A stretch of 64,000 nucleotides of DNA, taken from Acanthopagrus schlegelii. Lineage: Eukaryota. Under the pieces are notes generated by a model that was given only the letters and a program-made list of their open reading frames with translations, was not told the origin of the DNA and did no database searches. Shown here piece by piece: positions 11,360 through 64,000 of this stretch. Numbering within the stretch: the stretch's first letter is position 1; each line of letters begins with the position of its first letter. The position numbers were made by a program, and so were the translations under genes. The stretch covers positions 12,191,563 to 12,255,562 of the forward strand of contig CM085492.1 in assembly GCA_041753875.1 (NCBI GenBank), in the 5' to 3' direction.

Positions 11360-12241
11360 ATGGCTATAGTGCTCCGCTCCAGCCCCCTCCTATGGACGCG
11401 GTTGGCAGCCATGGTCTTCTCCTGCGTGGCCTTCTCCGTCGCCGTACATGGTGGCAGGCTCTACCACGGCACTGGAGATTGGTGCATCTTCTGCTGGGCC
11501 TTCAGTTTCGCAGGGACTCTGCTCGTCATCCTGGTGGAGCTGTTTGGTCTTGAGGCCAGAGCTCCTGTTTCCTGGAAGAACTTCCCCATCACCTTCGCCT
11601 GCTATGCCGCCCTGCTCTGCCTGTCCGCCTCCATCATCTTCCCCCTGTACTACCTCAAAGGCTCCATGGGCCCAAGCGAAGTCCGCGACTACCGCATTGT
11701 GTCAACCGTCTTCTCCTGCCTGGCCACCATCGCCTACATGAGCGAGGTGAGCATCAGCAAGGCGCGTCCAGGTGAGGTGGCTGGCTACATGGCCACAGCC
11801 CCCGGCCTGCTGAAAGTCTGCGAGACTTTTATCGCCTGCATCATCTTTGTCTTCGTCAGCGACCCCGTGCTGTACGACCATCATGACGCGCTCAAGTACT
11901 GCATGGCCGTCTACTGCATCTGCTTCATCCTGTCGGCGGCCATCATCATGCTATGTATCGGCGAGTGCACAGGTTGCCTCCCCTTCCCGTTTGCCCGCTT
12001 TCTGTCTGCCTACGCCCTGCTGGCGGTGGTCCTCTATCTGTCAGCGACCATCATCTGGCCCATCTTCAACTTTGACCCCAAGCATGGCGGATCTAAAAGT
12101 AGGCCCTACTCTTGCAGCAGCACAATGGGGTTGTGTGTGTGGGATAAGAACATGGCAGTTGCCGTGCTCACTGCTGTCAATTTCATCCTCTACCTGGCCG
12201 ACCTGATCTACTCCACCCGCCTGGTGTTTGTCAGTGCTTGA
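11360..12241 (+). CDS. Single-exon ORF of 293 aa: polytopic membrane protein with two MARVEL-like four-helix blocks (MYADM-like, myeloid-associated differentiation marker family)
   Basis: Uninterrupted ORF, about 8 hydrophobic helices; size and single-coding-exon organisation resemble vertebrate MYADM; strong GC3 codon bias typical of fish coding sequence. Confidence 0.6.
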
Positions 12242-21408: not shown

Positions 21409-21752
21409 CTGTGGAGGGAGAAGAGAAGATCACAGTCCTGTTAAACTCCCCATCCACCTCAGATACTATTATCATTATTACATTATGTATCATTAACATA
21501 AAAGTTAAGGTTGCCAAATGGCTTCTCTAGCAGCTACAGGTCATTGGCGACACATATTAACAGCATTAAGTTGCTGATTTGATGGACAGTTCACTTAAAA
21601 ATCCAAAAATACACACCTGTAATTTTGTTCGTGCTTTCTTTCATTCTAAGGTCGATGTCACTGGATCACCAATCAATTCATATAAAGAATCTGATACTAA
21701 CAGATACGACACATTTGCACTTAATAAGATCAAGATAAACGCATCAACTCAC

Positions 21753-22460
21753 CTTCTTCAAATGTGATGTGGTGCATAGAGGCAGAGCTGGTGAACTCCA
21801 GGGGGCAGTCCTGGATCTTGGCATCCCTCTCTCCCCCATGTTCTATCCCCAGCACCCTTCCCTGGGGGTCCCAGCCATCGTAGTGGGAGTAGGGTGCCGT
21901 GCACATGTCCTGATATTGGTTGTTGTTGGAGGGAGGGGACGGACACACCTCCTGAGGATAAGCAGAGTAGTGGGGGTAAGGAGAGGTGGGGATGGGAGGC
22001 AGAGGGGAGGTCGAGATGGGGCTACCGGCAGGAAACGGGCTGAGAGAGGAGGAGTGGGAGGGAGACGGCGAGGAGGACAGGTAGGGCGAGTCCAGCCATG
22101 GGGAAGGGGAGGGGGAGGGAGGCTGCGGGCCGCGGTGGTACAGGGGAGGGAGGAGCTCGGTGAAGCCCAGCTCCAGGTTCTCAAAGCTGGGGTGACGCTC
22201 GGACAGGGCTGCCCTGGACCCGCCGGGCTCCTCCGCCACAGCATCGGGTTTGGAGCAGTACTCCTCGTGGTAGCCCATGGTGGGGCAGGGAGGGGAGTAG
22301 GTGGAGGGGTAGGGGGGCAGGTGGAAGCCCAGGCTTCGATCATCAGCCACATGGAAGCCCCGGTCCATCCTGGGCTGAACCCCCACAGGACACACAGATC
22401 CCCCATCCAGAGGCAGCACAGAGGGCCGGGACAGCAGCGGGTCCTCCTCTTTGAACATTA
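21753..22460 (-). CDS. nfatc4: NFATC4 exon 12, large Pro/Ser-rich C-terminal transactivation-region exon (IMFKEEDPLLS … SPSP-rich … ASMHHITFEE)
   Basis: Minus ORF 21730..22458; compositional and positional match to the human NFATC4 C-terminal P/S-rich region; donor gtgagt. Confidence 0.85.
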
Positions 22461-23614: not shown

Positions 23615-24842
23615 TACACTATATTGCCAAAAGTATTCGCTCACCTGCCTTGACTCGCATATGAACTTAAGTGACACACCATTCTTAATCCATAGGGTTT
23701 AATATGAAGTCGGCCCACCCTTTGCAGCTATAACAGCTTCAACTCTTCTGGGAAGGCTTCCCACAAGGTGTAGGAGTGTGTTTATGGGAATTTATGACCA
23801 TTCTTCTAGAAGCACATTTGTGAGGTCACACACTGTTGTTGGATGGGAAGGCTCTTAGTTTCTGCTCAAATTCATCCTCATATTCTATGGGGTTGAGGTC
23901 AGGACTCAATGCAGGCCAGTCAAGTTCATCTACACCAGACTCTCTCAACCATGTCTTTATGGACCTTGCTTTGTGCACTGGTGCACAGTCATGTTGGAAC
24001 AGGAAGGGGCCATCCCCAAACTGCGCCCACAAAGTTGGGGGCATTGAATTGTCCAACATCTCTTGGTATGCTGAAGCATTCAGTGTTCCTTTCACGGAAC
24101 TAAGGGGCCAAGCCCAGCTCCTGAAAAACAACTCCACACCATAATCCCCCCTCCACCAAATGTTACACTTGGCACAATGCAGTCAGACAAGTACCTCCTG
24201 GTTGTTAGTTGGTAGCTCTCCTGGCAACCGCCAAACCCACCAGACTTGTCCTTCAGTTTGCCAGATAAAGAAATGCAATTCGTCACTCCAGAGAACACGT
24301 CTCCATTTCTCTAGAGTCCAGTGGCGACGTGCTTTACACCACTGCATCCACTTGCTGATGTAAGGCTTGGATGCAGCTGCTTGGCCATGGAAACCCATTC
24401 CATAAAGCTCTCTATGCACTGTTCTTAAGATAATCTGAAGGTCACATGAAGTTTGGAGGTCTGTAACAAGTGACTCTGCAGAAAGTTGGCAACCTATGCG
24501 CATTATGCGTGTCAGCATCTGCTGACCCTGCTCCGTCATTTTACGTGGCCTACCAGTTCATGGCTGAGTTGCTGTCGTTCCCAATCACTTGCACTTGACT
24601 GTGGAATATTTAGGAGTGAGGACATTTCACGACTGGACTTGTTGTACAGGGGGCATCCTATCACAGTACCATGCTGGCATTCACTGAGCTCCTGAGAATG
24701 ACCCATTCTTTCACAAATGTTTGTAGAAACAGTCTGCATGCCTAGGTGCTTGCTTTTATACACCTGCGGCCATGGAAGTGATTGGAACACCTGATTTCAG
24801 TTATTTGGATGGGTGAGTGAATACTTTTGACAATATAGTGTA
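23615..24842 (-). mobile_element. Tc1/mariner (Tc1-like) DNA transposon copy of about 1.2 kb, internally deleted, with terminal inverted repeats TACACTATATTGCCAAAAGTATTCGCTCACC… / …GGTGAGTGAATACTTTTGACAATATAGTGTA
   Basis: Both TIRs are visible; internal minus-strand ORF fragments encode Tc1 transposase (HTH region, WRRVLWSDE, DDE core with FQHDCAPVHKA and LDWPALSPDLNPIE) in several frames; lies inside an NFATC4 intron. Confidence 0.9.
23826..24790 (-). pseudogene. Tc1-like transposase, frameshifted and truncated
   Basis: ORFs 24536..24790, 24183..24539, 24092..24298 and 23826..24137 are consecutive transposase segments in different frames. Confidence 0.85.
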
Positions 24843-28219: not shown

Positions 28220-28244
28220 TTTTTTTTTTTTTTTTTTTTTTTTT
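28220..28244. repeat. T25 homopolymer (A25 on the NFATC4 strand) inside the 95-nt intron between exons 3 and 4
   Basis: Direct reading of the sequence. Confidence 0.95.
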
Positions 28245-28272
28245 ACCCACTCGATATTTTATTCATCTTCAC

Positions 28273-28785
28273 CTGTTCCAACGACGTCTTCCTGGTTTTC
28301 TGGGGGATGCTGAGCTCACAACTGCTGGGCAGAGCTTGTGACAGAGTGATGGAGTCCCCGCCGTCCAGGTTGCATCCCTGCAGATCCTCTGAGTAACTGC
28401 CCCTCCGGGAGTTACAGGGCGAGGCCAAGGGGGAGTTTCTACGCTTTTTGCCCCCGGGAGAAGTCGGCCTCGAGGACGGCGAGAGCCCAAAGTTGATGGT
28501 GGCGTCATTCAGCTCCTCCTCCTCCACCAGCAGGGAGTCACAGCTGGAGGCGGGGCTCAGCCAGCCACGGGAGGAGGGGCTGGAGGCGGGGCTCGGGCTG
28601 AGGGAGCTGGGGCATCTGTCGCGGTAAGAAAAGGGATCCAGCAGGGGGAGGTAGAGGCGCTCTCGGTCCCACCCGCCACCGCTGCCCATGTCCCAATAAC
28701 TGGAAATGGTGGGTGCTGGGTCATCCTCAGGGGAGATGGTGGTTATCTGGATGCTGGGACACTCAACCACACGAGATTCTGAAAC
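28273..28785 (-). CDS. nfatc4: NFATC4 exon 3, regulatory domain (VECPSIQITTISP… SP-repeat motifs … KRRNSPLASP … IPQKTRKTSLEQ)
   Basis: Matches human VLECPSIRITSISP…IPQKTRRTSSEQ; two candidate acceptors (cttcag| or gtttcag|) lie 7 nt apart; donor GAACAG|gtgaag. Confidence 0.85.
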
Positions 28786-43600: not shown

Positions 43601-44315
43601 ATAATCATGATTAATCATAATTTTAAAATAAAGAAACTAAGTAGACATGAGAAAGGCGTCAACATTTTCAGGAACAATAGAAGAATTTAACCAAAAGCCA
43701 AAAGGAAACCCTAATATTGCAATATAAAGAATACAAAATGTATCTGGTTGTTAACTATCACCCCCATATTGGGAAATGTATATTAGCAGCAATTTATTGT
43801 TATCTGTGAAATTACAGCTGATAAATAAACACAATAATAATACAAAGTCGAACTCCTTTTATTAACTTAACAAGCGCGGCATCTTCACTCTGCCACACAG
43901 TGGGTGGTGGTTGGGAAAGAGAAAGAAGGAGAAGAAGAACAAGCACAGCACGCAACACATGTTCAATGGTTCAGAGAGGAGGGGAAAAGTCTGCAAGCTT
44001 TAACACAACAAATCTTATTGAGCTGTGGAGCGGGAACACGTGGGCCTGGACAAATTCCGTTGGCGGGCAAATCTTATTGGTTTGAACAGGCGCAAAGTTT
44101 GTGTCTGGTATCTCGTTCATCTGTACAAATCTATGGGACTCTTTGAAAGTCTGCTTGAGGCTCCTTGAGGTCTGGAAGAAACAACCCACAGCACTTGCAG
44201 ACAGCAAAGTCTAAATATGCAGCAGTACTGAGGCCCCTTTCCTTTTAGATTACAGCAAAACATATTGAGGTTCTAACTTTTGTCTCTCCCAATCAGGATC
44301 AAAACTCCTTCGAGC

Positions 44316-44891
44316 ATGAGCGCCAACGATAACTGTACCTCTTTCCCGGACTGTGACGGAAACCCTGAGGAAGAGAGCGTTGTGAGCAATGACTTCTCCA
44401 CCGCCTTAGGTGCCTTCATCCTCAGCTTAGTCTTCCTCCTGGGCGTCCCTGGCAACCTCTTCATCGTCTGGAGCATCCTGGCACGCATCCGACGACGCTC
44501 AGTCACCACCCTCCTCATCCTTAACCTGGCGTGTGCCGATGGCCTTCTCATGGCCCTCACCATCTTCTTCATCGTCTACCTGGCCAAGCAGACGTGGGTC
44601 TTTGGCGGAGTCATGTGTAAAGGCCTGTTCTACCTGTGCAACTCCAACATGTACGCCTCCATCTTTCTGATCACGTTAATGAGCGTGCACAGGCTGGTGG
44701 TCGTGGTGTTTCCGAGGAGAGTGTCAGCTAAGCTCACCAGGAGGCTTATGACGAGGGTGATCGCGGGCATGTGGGTGCTGGTGTTCCTGTTTGCAATACC
44801 TTCGATCGTGTTCCGAGAAGTGAGGGAGGACAAAGATGACAAAAACAGATTAAGATTGGTGTGTGCACCCAATCACACCCTGCCTACATAT
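44316..44891 (+). CDS. ltb4r: Leukotriene B4 receptor-like GPCR exon 1 (MSANDNCTSF … TM1-TM4 … CAPNHTLPTY)
   Basis: Matches human LTB4R ([33 protein letters not shown]…QGTWSFG…MYASVLLITAMS); closer to BLT1 than BLT2; donor TAT|gtaagt. Confidence 0.85.
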
Positions 44892-45467
44892 GTAAGTACA
44901 CTGGGACTGCAGTTATTTCCATTATGGTAAATGCATTACCGACCACTGAAACACTAACAGTAGCGACTGGGTTGTTGCAAAACTCTGACGAATCATAATC
45001 ATTTCCCCACTTCCCCATACTCAAAAAGATGAAGGTTAGTGAAATTCTGGAGGGAGATCGGGCCATTTTTCAAGGCTAAACAACATATTTGACCCATCCC
45101 ATTAGCTAACCTTAGCATTCAACCACTTCATACTAACATTACTGTTTGATTAAATCCAGTGTGTATCAAAACAGTTACAGAGCTAAAGAATGGAGAAAGA
45201 CACTTTTTTTAAAAAAATCTCTTTTGAGTTTTGCCATGAACTACAAATCACACCTTTTAAGCCAACATAGATGCTAACTGACTATCTGTCTGCTCAAGAA
45301 CAGCTTATGCCACCAACTCTTTGTTTTATAAATGCAAACATCTGACATGTTTTTTTTTGTATTGCTGTCATCCTACCCTGCCCTGTTCGGACAGTTCCAT
45401 TCATGTCTACAGAGGAGTGTGGAGTCATTTCAGTGAGCACATCTGTTTTGTATCCCTGTGCGTGCAG

Positions 45468-45670
45468 GTGAGGTTTCAGTATGCCTTTGAGACGGTGTCG
45501 GGATTCATTCTTCCTTACACAATCATCATAATCAGCTACATGCTCATCCTGAGACGCCTGAAGCAGACCAAGTTCCGCAGGAATGTCCGCAGCGAGAAAC
45601 TCATCCTGGCTATCGTGGTGATGTTTGGCCTGTTCTGGCTGCCATACCATGTCATCAACATGATACAGGT
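45468..45670 (+). CDS. ltb4r: LTB4R-like exon 2 (VRFQYAFETVSGFILPYTIIIISYMLILRRLKQTKFRRNVRSEKLILAIVVMFGLFWLPYHVINMIQ; TM5-TM6)
   Basis: Matches FHLIFEAVTGFLLPF…FWLPYHVVNL; acceptor gcgtgcag|; donor placed at GT|gtgtga to keep phase with exon 3. Confidence 0.75.
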
Positions 45671-46257
45671 GTGTGATGGCACACGAAACACTCTTTTCTG
45701 ATTTAATCTAATCATCCTGATCGTTTGAATGAACACTGAGTCTGTTTTGATCAAGGTGGCGGCTGAGTGGTTCACTCCTGATTCACCTGAAAGAGATAAG
45801 TGAGTATTAACATTTTCACCAACTTATTTTCATTGACAAACAGTTCTTCCACAAAAGAAACAGTAGGAGGTATTAATTCTCAGTATTAAAACTGTAGTCA
45901 TGTTTATTTGTGATTTCTATATTGTGTTTCTATATTGTGACTTTTTAGTCATTTCGTGTGTCTTTGTGGTCTTTTTATTGGGGGGCCGTTTTGTGTCTTG
46001 CAGTTGTTTTGTTTCTATTTTATAGTTCTTTTTGTTGCTGTTTTCATTTTGTATGTCTTTCTAGTTATTCTGTCTCTTGTGGCTATATTGTGTCTCTTTG
46101 TAGTTGTTTTGTGTTGGGGGTTCGTCAGTAATACATCTTTGAAAGTATTATACTTTTTCATAGTCAAGTGAATTAAATAAAATTGTGTCTTTAAACATAC
46201 AGTATAAACACATTATATAGTTGTAGCTGAGGTACTTAATACTCTGTTCATCTGCAG

Positions 46258-53472: not shown

Positions 53473-53906
53473 GGGCAGTATTGGGCCGCGATGGTGGTGC
53501 CATGAAGCAAATGCTGCTCCCCTTCTGGCTCGGCCTCGGGGGCACCTTGGGGTCGGGACGTCAGCCATTTCCCTGGATCCATGTCTCAGACCTGGCAGGA
53601 ATCATCGCCCACGCTCTGGAGCCCCCCGCTGACACCGACACTCCCTCCCCTTCACCGCAGGTGTTCAACGGAGTCGCACCCGCGCTGAACACCAACTACG
53701 AGTTCACTAAAGAACTTGGCCGTGTCATGAGGAGACCCACCATTTTTCCTGTGCCTGGCTTCGTCATGAACGGCCTAATGGGCTCTGAGAGGGCCATCGT
53801 CCTCACGCAGGGCCAAAAAGTCATACCAAAGAGGACTCAAGAGGCTGGATTTCAGTATGAATACCCAGACTTGAACTCGGCACTGAAAGAGATTGTTGGC
53901 AGTTAA
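53473..53906 (+). CDS. sdr39u1: SDR39U1 exon 6 (GAVLGRDGGAMKQMLLPFWLGLGGTLGSGRQPFPWIHVSDLAGIIAHALE … GQKVIPKRTQEAGFQYEYPDLNSALKEIVGS*)
   Basis: ORF 53481..53906; strong match to the human SDR39U1 C-terminal half ([45 protein letters not shown]…QKVIPQRTLATGYQYSFPELGAALKEIVA). Confidence 0.95.
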
Positions 53907-55902: not shown

Positions 55903-56460
55903 CTGAAATTGAAAAAAAAGAAACGAGTGAGTGAAATCTAAAGTATTGGAGTAAGTACTTGGAAATAGTGAGTTTTACACAGGAACGTCAGTTTAAGTGT
56001 TGGTACCAAAGCTGTGCAAACAAACACAGTAGCTCCACCTACAGATGCTTTACACCAATGCCTTCAAAGTCTGATGCTGGGGACGCCCGCTCAAAAACCA
56101 TTGATAGTGCATAAACAAAACTATTCGGAGGAAAACCATGCCCTTCCAACATTAGGTTGTATTGTGTGATGCTGCAACCAGCAACCTGAGCCCTGGCAAC
56201 TGGTTACATTTTGGGAAATGGCGGATTTTGAAATCTGTCGAATTAGCTTTAGCGGTGTGGCCATGGAAGTGCAGACAACTTTGACTGGATGACTCCGTAA
56301 GGTGTAAATAACAATGTAAAAATCTCTAAAACGATACATGTATGTTTGTCTGTGTGTTCAAATTAGACTGAGTTATGAATAAAATCTTCATTGTTTGTAT
56401 ACTTGTATAACTTGCTATACTATGCTTGAAACACAGAGTTAGTCCAGACTTTGAGCTCAC

Positions 56461-56553
56461 CCCGGGCTGTGGCAGAGGTTGGTACAGCTGCCGGAAGTTG
56501 CAAGGGGTGACGTGTTCAACGGCCAGTTTAGGACACATCGCTTCATGAGGACA
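56461..56553 (-). CDS. mettl17: METTL17 exon 12 (CPHEAMCPKLAVEHVTPCNFRQLYQPLPQPG)
   Basis: Matches [25 protein letters not shown] (Cys cluster). Confidence 0.85.
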
Positions 56554-56645
56554 CTGGAAGAACAAAACAGGAGAGAGGATTGTGTAGACTGTGACACTGC
56601 TGGCTGAACGCATGACAATTTTGACCAGCTGGGATTTAAACATAC

Positions 56646-56874: not shown

Positions 56875-57333
56875 CTAAGCCGAGAAATAGAGAAAACACA
56901 ATTAGATGTCATTAAATGTAACATGACTTCTAAGTGCCAGCAAAGACAAATTGCAATTAATACACAAATTGTCTCTAGTTACGTCTTACTTAAAGTTCAC
57001 ACACAGGAAATCAACAGTTGATCAACTTTTGTCTGATGTTTTCCCAAAAATATTTAAACATAAAATTATGGTTATGTCATTTTAGGACCAATGATAGCCA
57101 GTCATATAATGATAAAAATAAATGACAATGAAAGTACACCCTTTTAAAGATAACTGTAAAAATGATTTGAATGGTTGTTCGTTGGAAGACCGTTAGTTGG
57201 CAATCATTTCTGTTATTTTTCAAGCAAAAATATCAATAGATAACAAGGTGATAAGATAAGATCTGTAAGATGATAAAGTTATTATCATGACAGGTCTATC
57301 AACAGTCAAAGTTTTGTCATTATTCAAACCAAC

Positions 57334-57441
57334 CAGATACGAGCTTGTCTTTCTCCACAGAGTGAGCACGACGTCTTCTCGCTCCTTCGCACTGGGAAGC
57401 TCTGAGAGGGTGAAGGCCGTGACCACCAAGTCAAACTGCAC
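57334..57441 (-). CDS. mettl17: METTL17 exon 9 ([36 protein letters not shown])
   Basis: Matches [36 protein letters not shown]. Confidence 0.9.
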
Positions 57442-58209: not shown

Positions 58210-58408
58210 CTGAAATGATAACATTGTTTTTTTTAAAAGCCATCTGGGACAGAAAAGAAGAAGTCGGACCCACCACCACATTCAGGACTCCTCAGTGATA
58301 AACATATTTCTTTTGTAATTTCCCTTACTTTACTAGAATCATATTCAAGAATAAGTACATGTTTTTTTGAGATATCAAAGGCTATGATCTCCACCACTTG
58401 TTCTTTAC

Positions 58409-58490
58409 CTCATTCATAGCTCTCCTCACTGCTGCATAGCATCCAGCCATCCGAGCCGCCATGTACACCACACCTAACTCTTCATCGTAC
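58409..58490 (-). CDS. mettl17: METTL17 exon 5 (KYDEELGVVYMAARMAGCYAAVRRAMNE)
   Basis: Matches [28 protein letters not shown]. Confidence 0.9.
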
Positions 58491-58732
58491 CTGAAACACA
58501 AATAGTGAGCTGTAAACAAACTCAGCCATGTCTCACTGTCAAGCAGGAAGAAATCAGCAGTTACGAGCTTCAACATGTAGCTACACATAGACACAATGAA
58601 AACAATGAGTTGCCATTTACCATACGGCTATAAAAAAAAGGCATAAAACATTCAATGTATCTCGTCGGACGTTGGGTAAAAAAAAAGCTCTTTATTTTAA
58701 CTATTAGAAAGTAGTTAACTTAATGAGATTAC

Positions 58733-59977: not shown

Positions 59978-60046
59978 CCTGTAGATCATCCTCACGACAG
60001 ACAACTTCTGACAGAGGACACAAGCGCCATAGCTCCGTAAGGCCAT
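59978..60046 (-). CDS. mettl17: METTL17 exon 1 (MALRSYGACVLCQKLSVVRMIYR), ATG 60044-60046
   Basis: Resembles the human METTL17 mitochondrial-presequence-like N-terminus MAAALKCLLTLGRW; donor TACAGG|gtgagt. Confidence 0.7.
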
Positions 60047-60552
60047 ATCTTCGGAGTGAGCGGTGACTTTTTGTTTTTTATATAGCTGTAATTTTAACTT
60101 TAACTTTCATCCACGCCTTGTTGAGCACGGAGGCACGTTAGGATTTCCCTACCATACCATCAACAAAATAATTCCGACCATGTGTTAAGACGGAACCTTT
60201 GGTCGTGTTCTTTTCGTTCCATGCGTGCTCGCGCTGCCCTTGTTTCCGGGTACAGACCAGCAACATCTCCGATAAATGGCATACGTCTCGTAAATATTAT
60301 TATTGGCATAATGATATAATTACGCATTTATACAAAATAATCAAAAAATAAAGTCGTTTCAGGTTTGTGCCCAAACCGTTGCCATGGTGACGGCGAATCC
60401 ACTCCACACGCTTTTGGACCGAGGCGTAGAGAGCGCATGCGTGAGACTCCGCACCGGCCAGGAAACAGTTGCGGGGAAAGTTTTCCACCCTCTTTGTTGT
60501 TACCGTGTCCCTTCTGTCACTGCACAGAACTAGACCTTTTTAACAAATCAGG
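60047..60552. promoter_or_regulatory. Bidirectional CpG-rich promoter of about 500 bp shared by METTL17 (minus) and PARP2 (plus); TATA-like TATATA at 60079-60084 about 30 bp from the METTL17 ATG; GCGCATGCG NRF1-like at about 60434-60442
   Basis: The first coding exons of the two genes diverge from this interval; CpG-dense relative to the flanks. Confidence 0.6.
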
Positions 60553-60625
60553 ATGAGGCGTACGAGAAGTTCGAGAAACAAAAGTCACTGTGCACAAGAA
60601 AATGAAGAAGTGCAGTCTGAAACAG
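60553..60625 (+). CDS. parp2: PARP2 exon 1 (MRRTRSSRNKSHCAQENEEVQSET)
   Basis: Basic NLS-like N-terminus as in PARP2; donor ACAG|gttggt; in-phase with the following exons. Confidence 0.7.
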
Positions 60626-61907
60626 GTTGGTGCATGTTTCGCGCTGGAGGACTAGCCTGCCAGGATAGCTAGCTGCTGTAACTACGTCACATGTGGACTC
60701 AGGACAAAAAATCAGGAAATACATGTTTTGTATTTGTAGCTTAATTGTTGTTGCAAGTGATGTTGGAATCAACCACTTTATACTTATACTATCTATGCCT
60801 GTTAGAATTTGACCATGTGAGTAAAACATGTCAACCTGTTATTACCGCAGACCTAAAGGTCTTTGGTGAATACCCAATATGCACCCAGTTGCCAGTTTAT
60901 AAGGCACAGTTGGTTAGCTAGAACAGCCCTGTACCAAGCCCTGAAGGTTATAATGTTTAGACATTTGGTTTCAGAGAGGTGTTGATTCACTTCTTATTAT
61001 TGTTTGGGGTGCTGTTGAATCAGATAAGATCTGTATCACAATTTCCATTTTCATTGGACTACAGGACAAACTACACCAGTATTTTCTTTCAGTAAGGACC
61101 AGGGGAGTGTGATAGTATTTTAAGAGCCTTCTGTCTGTAATGTGACCTGATTGGTCCACATGGGTCGACCAACCTATTTAAGATGGTCTCGATCACTGTC
61201 TTGTAAGATAACCTGATGAAGGTCTGAGTACTGAAACGTTGTTCTTAAACTTTGCAAGTGATATGAACAGTGTACAGGAGGGTTCTTTTTTCCTTCTCCT
61301 GCGCACCTGTTGCAGCTGTATTCACTGAAAAACTATTGAAATCATGATGATTTAACATTTGTTGGGTCTGGGCAGGGCATCCCTGCAGCACTACAGTACT
61401 TATAATGCAGTTGTGTCAAACATATTACCTTAACAAAAAAACACAGATTCAGCAATTTGTGTAGTTTACTTGGCCATATTATGATTTTGATAGTATTTTG
61501 ATTAATTGTGCAGCCCTACAAAAAAAGCATATTAAAAAAAAGTAAGTGTCATAAAATGTAAGTATTCATTAGTACTTGAACTGCTTGTGCTTAGGTACAG
61601 TAAATTAGTACATGTACTTAGTCACATTCCATGCTGGGAATAAAAGATGAATCAGGAAGCAGAATGACTTAAATGACTCATTGTAGAAATCATATCATTA
61701 TCATATGGTTGCATTGTACAACAATTTTAGTTATTTATTGATTCAATAGCTATTTTTGTTTATTTTGGCAATACTTTCTTTAAACTTTCAAAATGTTTAC
61801 TTGGTAAGTCCCACAATACCAAAATGTATAAACGGGCTAGTTTGTAATATTTGAGTTGATGCAGTTGTAATAAAGTATCTAACTGTATTTTCTCTATGTG
61901 TGATCAG

Positions 61908-62117
61908 TGTGGCAGTGGAAAGGAGATGAAGGACAGTGGGAACCATACTCCCCTTCAGACTGCGCCTTGTTGGACTCAGCCGTCTCTTCAGGAGAAACCT
62001 CCGTCACTCTGTCTCTGGGCTCTGGGATGACCTACGAAGTCGACCTGAAGAAGATGGTCCAGATTAATCCTGTGACCAAGTACAAGAGGAAGATTCGCTC
62101 CCAGACAGTTAAACCAG
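61908..62117 (+). CDS. parp2: PARP2 exon 2, encodes a WWE-like domain (WQWKGDEGQWEPYSPSDCALLDSAVSSGETSVTLSLGSGMTYEVDLKKMVQINPVTKYKRKIRS)
   Basis: ORF 61907..62179; W-x-W…E…Y-x-D pattern typical of WWE; phase-1 acceptor tgatcag| and donor CCAG|gtatgt are consistent with exons 1 and 3. Confidence 0.65.
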
Positions 62118-62336
62118 GTATGTGTGTGTTTTGTGTTATGCCATATGGACCATTTTGCCACAATACTGTTTCATTTTAGATCAGTTGTTGAATTTGAAAT
62201 TGTTGACAACATCTGTCATCCCCTCTATTCGGATTTTCTCCATTTCACACTTTCTAACTTTTTTAGGAAATACTTTATCGAGTAGTCAGTAGAAGAAAGT
62301 TAATGTGTTTTTTTTCTGTTGTCTTCTTTTGTGCAG

Positions 62337-62495
62337 AAAGTTCAAATGATGCCTGTGACTTAACAGCTCAAAATGGGAAACCAGTTCAAGTTAAAAAGGA
62401 AGAGGAGACAGAAGAGCAACCTGCAGCTAAGAGGAAGAGAGGACAAAGCAAGAGTCAAACAAAAACCGAAGTAATGCCCAAAGAGGAAATAAAAG
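62337..62495 (+). CDS. parp2: PARP2 exon 3 (ESSNDACDLTAQNGKPVQVKKEEETEEQPAAKRKRGQSKSQTKTEVMPKEEIK; acidic/basic linker with NLS KRKR)
   Basis: Low-complexity charged linker as in the PARP2 N-terminal region; splice phases consistent. Confidence 0.65.
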
Positions 62496-62702
62496 GTGAA
62501 GGTAGCAGTGATCTAATTTTTGATACCTTTAGAAATGGTAATGTGATGTTGCTCAGTAATTGGCGATCTACAAGGTGGAGTAATTGCAGCAAAATCATCA
62601 AGTGATTTATGTTTTTTAAAGGATGTGGTTTTACCTATATTTCATATTAGAAGTCAGTTGACCTAATTAATAGTTTCTCTCTGGTCTTTGGATGATGAAC
62701 AG

Positions 62703-62773
62703 AGGTTGTGAAGACAGTGATCATGAAAGGAAAAGCTCCAGTGGACGGTGAATGCAAAGCCAAACTTGGAAAG
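62703..62773 (+). CDS. parp2: PARP2 exon 4 (EVVKTVIMKGKAPVDGECKAKLGK; start of WGR domain)
   Basis: Matches human PARP2 VKALLLKGKAPVDPECTAKVGK. Confidence 0.9.
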
Positions 62774-63248
62774 GTATATTATCTATGTTTAAATGCATCT
62801 TTTAAATGATTGTTGTACCGAGAGCAACTTCTTATTATAATCATCTTATCTCATTATTGATATTTTTTTGAGCAGCAGTGTGCAATGTAGGGTGCTCAGG
62901 TTTAGTTCAATTCTTAAAAATACATTGATAATCTTTTACAATCTCAGCAGTAACCTCTTGAGCTGAAAAATTAAGCCAACACATCAGAATATCTGCCAAT
63001 GAACTGCAGTTCCTCAAACAGCCACTTGAGGCAGGCTCACCAAACACCCAAATCTGCTGAATGCCCAACTTTACAGAGGACAAGTTAAACATCTTCTGTA
63101 TGATCAAACTGTTCCGGAAAAATAGAGCATTACTCTCAATCAACCCTGAATAAAAACAAGAGGTGAATAGTTCCTCAGTGCTTTCACTGTTACTTGTTGA
63201 GGTGGGCATTTTTTCACTATTCCTTTTTTCGATCTCTTTGTATTTCAG

Positions 63249-63299
63249 GCTCATGTTTACAGTGAAGGAAATGATGTTTACGATGCGATGCTCAACCAG
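63249..63299 (+). CDS. parp2: PARP2 exon 5 (AHVYSEGNDVYDAMLNQ)
   Basis: Matches AHVYCEGNDVYDVMLNQ. Confidence 0.9.
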
Positions 63300-63752
63300 G
63301 TAAAGTCTTTACTAAAAAAATGTCCTGTAAAGTTGGGAGGGGAATTTGTAACACTCATGAAGTGCTTTTTGGTCAAAATTCAAACGCTGTACTCTTTATT
63401 TCCTTATTGATTCGTAACTGACTGACTAGTAAATAGTCTGACAGATATTCTTATTGCAACTACTCACCATATTTCAGCAACTGATGATTTTAGAACAACA
63501 TTTATTTAACTATGCTTTTTGCCCCCCTCTAACGTCCTGACAATTTTCACTTACACAGCAATGTCTTCATCTGATACATGATTCTTTTTTAAGCTAATAA
63601 TGCAACTGTCCTACTGTTGCACAAAATCAACGAATCTAGTGAAAGCTTTAAAAGTATCCTGTTATTATGTACTTTAATTTTACAATTTAATTTGTTGGAA
63701 AGTGAGTATATATTTGTTTGACTTGTAGCAAATGCCTTCTGTCTTATTGCAG

Positions 63753-63849
63753 ACAAATCTTCAGTTTAACAACAACAAATACTACCTGCTCCAGCTGCTG
63801 GAAGACGACAACTCCAAGACTTACAGTGTGTGGTTGAGATGGGGCAGAG
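63753..63849 (+). CDS. parp2: PARP2 exon 6 (TNLQFNNNKYYLLQLLEDDNSKTYSVWLRWGR; WGR motif)
   Basis: Matches TNLQFNNNKYYLIQLLEDDAQRNFSVWMRWGRVG; the gene continues beyond the window end. Confidence 0.9.
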
Positions 63850-64000
63850 GTGAGCCAATGTGCCTGTTATTGTTAGCATGCTTGATATATGTATAGAAAT
63901 GTTTGTTTTAACACAGGAAATTAAGGAAATCCTGCAGTTTGGAAGGTCTTTTCTAAAATGTAAACTAAGTGGTTTAATTTATTTTGGTTGGTTTCCCTTA

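Follow-up and report, generated by a model that had tools for sequence, protein, structure and literature searches.

A predicted WWE-domain exon in the parp2 gene of Acanthopagrus schlegelii matches the PARP2 architecture of nonmammalian vertebrates

Introduction

The presence of one or more WWE domains at the N terminus of PARP2 has been reported for many nonmammalian animals (Perina et al. 2014, DNA Repair 23:4; PMC4245714, section 3.1.1), and a previous survey assigned the WWE domain to PARP clades 2 and 3 only (Citarelli et al. 2010). Dozens of PARP2 entries in the databases carry the corresponding Pfam family, PF02825, and the WWE-PARP2 architecture is therefore already known, having been published in 2014 and being annotated in databases. 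Examples are the proteins of Betta splendens, Ictalurus punctatus, Diretmus argenteus, Xenopus laevis (parp2.S isoform X2) and Chiloscyllium punctatum, in which an N-terminal WWE domain is followed by a linker and by the WGR, PARP_reg and PARP domains. The gene described here is the same gene, and nothing essential distinguishes it from these WWE-PARP2 genes; it encodes one WWE domain, as in teleosts, whereas nonteleosts often have two. It follows that the WWE exon of this locus is neither a new nor a species-specific feature.

At the same place upstream of the WGR domain, mammalian PARP2 presents a disordered and basic N terminus that does not contain a folded domain, and none of the mammalian matches carries a Pfam WWE. 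This region is reported to bind PAR directly, which stimulates PARP2, and to promote the synthesis of branched PAR (PMC6089979), and XRCC1, by binding to the catalytic domain of PARP2, represents a further PAR-dependent recruitment route (PMC11838041). The WWE domain and the ADP-ribosyltransferase fold also occur on one polypeptide in the clade 3 WWE-PARPs (PARP7, 11, 12, 13 and 14), but these belong to another clade, do not contain the WGR and regulatory domains, and are mono-ADP-ribosyltransferases or inactive (PMC4245714; PMC10450202).

The paradigm of an iso-ADP-ribose reader is the WWE domain of RNF146, where Q153 forms a hydrogen bond with the adenine, against which Y107 stacks; Y107 touches the AMP as well as the phosphoribose moiety, and the AMP phosphate is held by R163 and Y144, with the phosphoribose half of iso-ADPr occupying a second, shallower pocket (PMC8853533). 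ZAP has a Trp at the Y107 position, which is said to preserve the stacking on adenine while the hydrogen bond to the ribose is lost, and the phosphoribose subpocket is missing (PMC8853533). All the E3-ligase WWE domains assayed in a separate study bound 11-mer PAR, with Kd values of 0.15 uM for HUWE1, 0.34 uM for DTX1 and 13 uM for TRIP12, and E3-ligase WWE domains also bound ATP and ADP; the binding of iso-ADPr was weak in all three, with Kd values of 132 uM for HUWE1 and >500 uM for TRIP12, and HUWE1 and TRIP12 were interpreted as reading the terminal ADP moiety (PMC11269756).

Results

The window analyzed is a stretch of 64,000 nucleotides of A. schlegelii (GenBank assembly GCA_041753875.1, contig CM085492.1), in which the 5' part of parp2 is predicted on the plus strand as six exons. 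Exon 1 (60553 to 60625) contains the ATG and the basic N-terminal peptide MRRTRSSRNKSHCAQENEEVQSET, and ends in phase 1 with a G followed by the donor gttggt. It aligns with residues 1 to 25 of the protein (P0001) encoded at the parp2 locus of the icefish Champsocephalus gunnari (L006), to which it is 72% identical at the nucleotide level, and in the cDNA contig L007 the exon 1 peptide is joined directly to VWQW. Exon 2 (61908 to 62117), the WWE-domain exon, has 210 nt in phase 1/1 and encodes the peptide VWQWKGDEGQWEPY…KYKRKIRSQTVKP. Its acceptor consists of a polypyrimidine tract and AG (…tgtattttctctatgtgtgatcag, with the exon opening on TG at 61908), and its donor is of the consensus type, with AAACCAG at the end of the exon and gtatgt after 62117. 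The translation of this exon is V-WQWKGDEGQWEPYSPSDCALLDSAVSSGETSVTLSLGSGMTYEVDLKKMVQINPVTKYKRKIRSQTVKP, the first codon using the last G of exon 1; it is because of this phase 1 that a naive frame-1 translation of 61908 to 62117 is interrupted by stops throughout.

Exon 3 (62337 to 62501, phase 1/1) encodes the acidic/basic linker (…VKKEEETEEQPAAKRKRGQSKSQTK…), and its peptide, ESSNDA…KRKRGQSK…, is in frame after exon 2. A second possible donor occurs 6 nt upstream, at 62495, and the frame is kept with either of the two. Since L007 aligns through 62501, where it abuts exon 4, and the icefish protein aligns through 62500, the donor at 62501 is most likely the one used. Exon 4 (62703 to 62773, phase 1/0; EVVKTVIMKGKAPVDGECKAKLGK) abuts both exon 3 and exon 5 in L007; in a second cDNA contig, L001, it abuts exon 5, exon 3 being unaligned at the DNA level. 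Exon 5 (63249 to 63299; AHVYSEGNDVYDAMLNQ) was placed by the icefish alignment, by blastn against the icefish locus and by the L007 junctions, and exon 6 (63753 to 63849; TNLQFNNNKYYLLQLLEDDNSKTYSVWLRWGR) corresponds to the start of the WGR domain. The six exons joined give one open frame, MRRTRSSRNK…SET, the WWE domain and then ESSNDA…KRKRGQSK…EVVKTVIMKGKAPVDGECKAKLGKAHVYSEGNDVYDAMLNQTNLQFNNNKYYLLQLLEDDNSKTYSVWLRWGR, in agreement with the splice phases of the initial annotation (1/1, 1/1 and 1/0). The resulting layout is a basic N-terminal peptide, a WWE domain, an acidic/basic linker with KRKR, and a WGR domain, with the PARP_reg and PARP domains expected beyond the window, the end of which (64000) falls in the intron after exon 6. 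No RNA family reached the gathering score in an Rfam scan of the whole window, and thus no RNA gene lies beside parp2 there.

When positions 60000 to 64000 were compared with the icefish parp2 locus by blastn, the six predicted exons were the only parts of the gene to match, and one more matching region lay upstream of exon 1 (60007 to 60203). Exon 2 is the best conserved of the exons, with 89% nucleotide identity over 61895 to 62131. Substitutions in it occur mostly at the third codon position (6/4/12 differences by codon position with respect to icefish, and 15/13/37 with respect to L001, which derives from a fish more distant than icefish), and, judging from this comparison, the exon 2 frame is under purifying selection. 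Furthermore, in six other fishes, the conservation of the read-through ORFs on short genomic contigs extends from "(S)VWQW" to "VKP/VKS" and is lost just outside, at points that correspond to both exon 2 boundaries.

Evidence for splicing was provided by contigs assembled from public sequencing runs of other fishes. In particular, L001 (SRR11928275, 2,593 nt) and L007 (SRR10743280, 2,704 nt) are intron-free contigs containing full-length parp2. The former reads, in a single frame, MRRARSTRNK…TVWSWKGDDD…, and continues through the WWE domain, the linker, the WGR domain and the catalytic region to SSLW and the stop codon, and the latter reads MRRARSSRNKSQAAQENEEVPSKA-VWQWEGDDG…. The blastn segments of L007 end at, or within 1 to 2 bases of, window positions 62117, 62501, 62773 and 63299, and the abutting segments start just upstream of 62337, 62703, 63249 and 63753. 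The same layout was found in six more proteins of 623 to 627 amino acids, each the single product of a contig of 2.2 to 2.8 kb. Exon 2 is therefore included in the parp2 mRNAs of related fishes, and its postulated splicing to exon 1 on one side and to the linker and WGR exons on the other can be seen in mRNA-like contigs (L001 and L007) of such fishes. This transcript evidence is cross-species, the closest source having 82% protein identity; an exact look-up of the exon 2 read-through ORF, sought as a same-species transcript, found nothing on record.

The assignment of exons 4 to 6 to PARP2, already made in the initial annotation, is supported by three lines of evidence. First, the Pfam WGR family (PF05406) matches with 41.6 bits, against a cutoff of 22, over profile positions 1 to 38 of 79, the match being ended by the end of the window. 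Second, the nearest homologues of the conceptual protein are fish proteins with WWE and WGR domains, in some cases with PARP_reg, and the best named ones are PARP2 proteins of fishes, amphibians, turtles and mammals; over the N-terminal 220 amino acids, the identity to teleost WWE-PARP2 members is 56 to 82%. Among the orthologous sequences, both the cDNA contigs L001 and L007 and the full-length homologues contain the PARP_reg and PARP catalytic domains, the part of the protein expected outside this window. Third, three minus-strand ORFs upstream of parp2 (58382 to 58594, 57220 to 57441 and 56326 to 56643) are collinear with the Rsm22 profile, covering its positions 5 to 29, 104 to 139 and 168 to 190, respectively, each of them singly below threshold. 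An Rsm22/METTL17-like gene thus appears to lie head to head with parp2, and an Rsm22 gene is likewise found head to head with it at the icefish locus. By homology and by gene neighborhood, the gene is identified as the teleost PARP2 orthologue.

The identification of the 210-nt exon as a WWE domain was confirmed by sequence profiles and by structure prediction. The match of PF02825 obtained by hmmscan is far above the gathering cutoff of 21.1 bits, with 69.2 bits in the conceptual translation of the assembled gene and 71.6 bits for exon 2 alone, and spans profile positions 2 to 66 of 67. [quoted passage not shown] The AlphaFold2 model of the domain, obtained from a 20-sequence alignment, has a mean pLDDT of 90 and a pTM of 0.73, and its beta-beta-alpha-beta-beta-beta-beta layout (strands at residues 2 to 4, 10 to 12, 31 to 36, 40 to 45, 50 to 52 and 59 to 63; helix at 15 to 26) corresponds to the WWE fold, a half-barrel of beta strands against one helix. 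All of the best 24 PDB matches of the model in Foldseek are WWE domains, with TMq values of up to 0.89 and root mean square deviations of 0.7 to 2.8 Å among the best matches; the top ones are TRIP12 (9BKS and 9BKR) and HUWE1 (6PFL and 8R7O), with TMq values of 0.85 to 0.89. Thus, exon 2 encodes one complete, genuine WWE domain.

The closest relatives of this domain are those of TRIP12 (9BKS/9BKR), HUWE1 (6PFL/8RD7/6MIW) and DTX1 (8R5N/8R6A), with E values from 1e-10 to 1e-7, TMq values of 0.75 to 0.89 and 28 to 41% identity. They share with the fish PARP2 domain the motif set V/I-W-x-W…G-x-W…Y-x-V/I-D…M-x-Q-x-N…R, but are fused to ubiquitin-ligase domains instead of a PARP catalytic domain. 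The WWE domains of the clade 3 PARPs are more distant in the Foldseek search (ranks 18 to 23).

A profile search identified full-length PARP2-named proteins with the WWE, WGR, PARP_reg and PARP domains across the nonmammalian vertebrates, namely, in sharks and rays (Chiloscyllium, Narcine and, as a fragment, Mobula), in sturgeon and paddlefish, in more than 15 teleosts (Betta, Ictalurus, Esox, Diretmus, Myripristis, Oryzias, Denticeps, Dicentrarchus and others), in amphibians (Xenopus laevis parp2.S isoform X2, Leptobrachium, Hymenochirus and Microcaecilia) and in turtles. The several dozen mammalian PARP2 matches contain only WGR, PARP_reg and PARP, with a WWE domain in none of them. The contrast with mammals drawn in the initial annotation thus stands as regards the missing WWE domain; it does not stand as regards a PAR-binding N terminus, given that the mammalian one is reported to bind PAR (PMC6089979). 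Metagenomic and Logan sequences of 25 to 40% identity also pair a WWE domain with a PARP2-like WGR domain, which suggests that WWE-PARP2 arose before the vertebrates.

A tandem pair of WWE domains is usual outside teleosts, in the cartilaginous fishes, sturgeon, paddlefish, amphibians and turtles, whereas teleosts have one. In the search for a relic of a second WWE domain in intron 1, the paddlefish, ray and turtle proteins with tandem WWE domains were used as tblastn queries against the whole window and matched only 61907 to 62128. Given that many nonteleosts have two domains and teleosts one, the WWE region was lost in mammals rather than gained in fish, and in teleosts the ancestral pair was lost in part. 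As to the gain or loss that the initial annotation proposed to date by homologue search, the occurrence of WWE-PARP2 in sharks, sturgeon, amphibians and turtles speaks for a loss. In pairwise identity, the teleost domain is nearer to the second WWE domain of paddlefish, sturgeon, a caecilian-like protein and turtle, and nearer to the first one of sharks and rays, with a tie in a frog. The position adjacent to the linker and the T-K-Y-x-R-K motif favor the second domain as the teleost counterpart, and the teleost WWE domain is probably the second of the ancestral pair.

With regard to the gene models, many of those available for the PARP2 of fishes, frogs and turtles either skip the WWE exon or begin at a Met inside it, with the result that the WWE domain is hidden in the annotation.

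In order to evaluate the putative ligand pocket, the domain was aligned with that of RNF146, using an RNF146 sequence that was checked to be identical to PDB 3V3L chain A. The two share the same fold (TMq of 0.86), with 24 to 28% identity. The residues corresponding to W105, W114, Y144, Q153 and R163 are kept, whereas Y107 is replaced by Trp and R110 by Asp, and the C-terminal K175 segment of RNF146 has no clear counterpart. Reportedly, the work of Wang and colleagues in 2012 placed R110 of RNF146 in the distal (phosphate) site. According to the phmmer alignments, a Trp at the Y107 position also occurs in TRIP12, HUWE1 and DTX1. The pocket Gln, Tyr and Arg are kept in the teleost and second-WWE PARP2 sequences, and the Gln and the Arg are invariant in all aligned PARP2 WWE domains.

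The conservation of the AMP-pocket residues suggests that the PARP2 WWE domain is likely to bind PAR. The replacement of R110 with Asp makes a strict, RNF146-like specificity for iso-ADP-ribose doubtful, and high-affinity binding of iso-ADPr cannot be assumed in view of the low identity, the changes at Y107 and R110 and the unmatched K175 segment. Moreover, as TRIP12 and HUWE1 bind iso-ADPr weakly, the affinity or specificity of the PARP2 domain for PAR could be modest. A literature search for the phrase "PARP2 WWE" did not return any study of this domain.

Discussion

On the basis of these results, we consider it highly probable (about 85%) that 61908 to 62117 is a genuine coding exon of parp2 which encodes one complete WWE domain, and that the gene has the usual PARP2 architecture of nonmammalian vertebrates. 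As to function, it is possible to hypothesize, by analogy with the characterized WWE domains, that the domain would bind ADP-ribose units of poly(ADP-ribose) via the conserved adenine/AMP pocket and would thereby hold PARP2 on the PAR that PARP1, or PARP2 itself, has previously synthesized at sites of DNA damage. Anchored in this way, PARP2 would be more readily recruited or retained, and the further elongation or branching of PAR would be favored, an equivalent role being ascribed in mammals to the disordered N terminus and XRCC1. Both the binding of PAR by the fish PARP2 domain and its effect on recruitment or activity are only inferred by analogy.

A first alternative, possible although we would not favor it, is that the WWE exon is a cassette exon, so that PARP2 forms with and without the WWE domain are both made, the WWE form being perhaps the minor one here. 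This reading is compatible with the main one and does not exclude it. The 210 nt in phase 1/1 imply that skipping exon 2 preserves the frame, and models in which exon 1 is joined to exon 3 are annotated in Cyprinodon tularosa (isoform X2) and Megalops cyprinoides (isoform X2), as well as in Thunnus thynnus, Larimichthys crocea, Arapaima gigas and Paramormyrops; in turtles, there are isoforms with the first WWE domain alone or the second one alone. However, the exon-skipping models are computational annotations, the exon is included in L001 and L007, the WWE domain is present in the six other proteins of 623 to 627 amino acids from contigs of 2.2 to 2.8 kb, and exon 2 is the most conserved of the N-terminal exons. 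We therefore limit ourselves to saying that skipping of exon 2 may occur in some transcripts or lineages. A broader and rather unlikely proposal would see in the tandem WWE domains an ancestral PAR module, in the fish exon a regulated switch between PAR-tethered and PAR-independent PARP2, and in the disordered N terminus and XRCC1 of mammals what is used instead.

It is somewhat less likely still that the WWE fold is retained without PAR reading, either as a protein-interaction or structural module or as a domain binding an adenine nucleotide of the ATP/ADP type. The Asp at the R110 position and the Trp at the Y107 position would fit such a function, as would the lack of a phosphoribose subpocket in ZAP, which has a Trp at the Y107 position (PMC8853533), and the binding of ATP/ADP by E3-ligase WWE domains together with the weak PAR binding of TRIP12 (PMC11269756). 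On the other hand, the AMP-holding Gln, Tyr and Arg are conserved, with the Gln and the Arg invariant in the aligned PARP2 domains, every E3-ligase WWE domain assayed bound 11-mer PAR (PMC11269756), and the domain sits in a PAR-making enzyme. With respect to origin, a lineage-specific gain by exon shuffling in this fish or in teleosts, creating a new fusion of reader and writer, is very improbable: its sole support is the absence of the WWE domain from mammalian PARP2, and it is refuted by the taxonomic distribution of WWE-PARP2, which extends to sharks and rays, sturgeon and paddlefish, amphibians, turtles and probable invertebrates, mostly with a tandem pair, in an architecture published in 2014. 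Finally, the reading of the segment as a chance ORF, as a pseudo-exon or as an exon belonging to another, Deltex-like gene located within intron 1 of parp2 can be practically dismissed, as the initial annotation had held for a chance ORF, because the one ray homologue named "DTX4-like" at its source runs on into the PARP2 WGR domain, the Pfam score is about 50 bits over the cutoff, conservation is limited to the exons with a third-position bias pointing to purifying selection on the exon 2 frame, and the junctions of the cDNA contigs join exon 2 to parp2 exons, which refutes these readings for the related species.

As a discovery, the WWE exon of this parp2 gene carries little weight, as the architecture was published in 2014 and is routinely annotated in databases. 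What interest it retains lies in the recruitment of mammalian PARP2 to PAR, for which direct binding by the N terminus and bridging by XRCC1 are debated. In nonmammalian PARP2, a folded domain that retains the adenine-pocket residues is a candidate PAR reader, and we suggest that it represents a lead for experiments. If the exon were indeed a cassette, or part of an ancestral tandem module, fish PARP2 would be a natural system in which to study the role of PAR reading in PARP2 recruitment and in the synthesis of branched PAR.

Genomic context of parp2 and other putative coding sequences in the window

The parp2 gene, on the forward strand (exons 1 to 6 at 60553-63849), is arranged head-to-head with an Rsm22-like gene, which is represented on the reverse strand by three exon-like ORFs (58382-58594, 57220-57441, and 56326-56643) whose Pfam Rsm22 matches are collinear, each of them alone being below the threshold. 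Rsm22 is a METTL17-like mitochondrial methyltransferase. The same neighbor, in the same orientation, is also present at the parp2 locus of the icefish Champsocephalus gunnari, and the blastn comparison with this locus highlighted a conserved segment (60007-60203) lying between the two genes.

About 15 kb upstream of parp2, two forward-strand ORFs (44280-44930 and 45321-45701) match consecutive parts of the rhodopsin-family profile 7tm_1, with 99 and 41 bits, respectively, and look like a receptor gene that is either made up of two exons or interrupted in its frame. On the same strand, a DUF1731 domain (66 bits) is found at the end of the ORF at 53481-53906. This domain is typical of SDR39U1-type epimerase-family proteins, and the ORF is probably the final exon of a gene of this type. 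A single long forward-strand ORF (11360-12241, 293 aa), with two matches to the MARVEL membrane domain (88 bits), probably corresponds to a MARVEL-family gene that is intronless or has a large exon.

The other ORFs considered are on the reverse strand. The one at 1243-1674, matching positions 65 to 156 of the Pex19 family profile with 61 bits, resembles an exon from a peroxin-19 gene located on the left edge of the window. The one at 24183-24539, showing a weak, subthreshold match (25 bits) to the helix-turn-helix (HTH) domain of Tc3-type transposases, is probably what is left of a decayed Tc1/mariner element. Two long, Ser/Pro-rich ORFs (21730-22458, 242 aa, and 28243-28770, 175 aa), the second of which contains repeated SPxxSP-like motifs, gave no match in the Pfam search; they may be large exons that encode parts of a regulatory protein.

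Splicing of the linker exon and integrity of related transcripts

At the end of exon 3, the linker exon of parp2, we could notice two in-frame GT donors located 6 nt apart, at 62495 and 62501 (AAAAG/GTGAAG/GTAGCA, with slashes at the two possible boundaries). The downstream donor, which adds two residues, is the one used by the related cDNA and protein sequences; use of the upstream donor would result in a linker shorter by 2 aa.

The fish cDNA contig L001 (Logan SRR11928275_349) carries an in-frame TAA at positions 582 to 584, where all homologues have the Lys codon of the ECKAKLGKAH segment, so that the called genes are split in two. Apart from this codon, L001 is an intact, full-length parp2 cDNA contig, and the TAA may have arisen through a mistake in assembly or sequencing, or may instead represent a nonsense allele.

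WWE domain in PARP2 homologues and their gene models

Four AT-rich eukaryotic contigs from metagenomes (L002 to L005, ENA metagenome and Logan contigs) encode a WWE ORF followed by a WWE-plus-WGR ORF and then by PARP_reg and PARP fragments, and they probably derive from a PARP2-like gene of an invertebrate or a protist with tandem WWE domains. As for birds, Perina et al. 2014 (PMC4245714, sections 3.1.1 and 4) list "bird" among the taxa having WWE domains in PARP2, yet they also conclude that PARP2 was lost in all sequenced birds, and the two statements are internally inconsistent. No bird PARP2 occurred among the matches of our protein profile search for PARP2 homologues.

In several annotated fish PARP2 models (P0094, P0088, P0098, P0087, P0095, and P0101), exon 1 is joined straight to the linker exon, with the WWE exon (61908-62117 in the window) being skipped. 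These models include those of both osteoglossomorphs seen (Arapaima and Paramormyrops), where the absence of this exon could reflect either a lineage loss or exon skipping.

Other entries are misleadingly named in their source or chimeric (P0007, P0005, and P0004). In particular, a PARP2 N-terminal fragment from Mobula is called "E3 ubiquitin-protein ligase DTX4-like," one from Polyodon is called "PARP1-like," and P0004, from Pungitius, is a chimeric model in which the PARP2 N terminus is followed by a seven-transmembrane (7TM) receptor tail. This fused tail is a G protein-coupled receptor (GPCR) tail, and the 7tm_1 profile matched by the two ORFs upstream of parp2 in the window is likewise a GPCR profile.

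Finally, many database PARP2 models start at an internal Met within the WWE exon, or within the last one (MVQINPVTKYKRK… or MVQKNSQTQYERQ…), as is the case for P0104, P0080/81, P0085, P0090, P0096, P0097, P0089, and P0103; the 558-aa entry for Xenopus laevis parp2.S is among the models starting in this way. PARP2 models cut at this internal Met hide the WWE domain from domain annotation.
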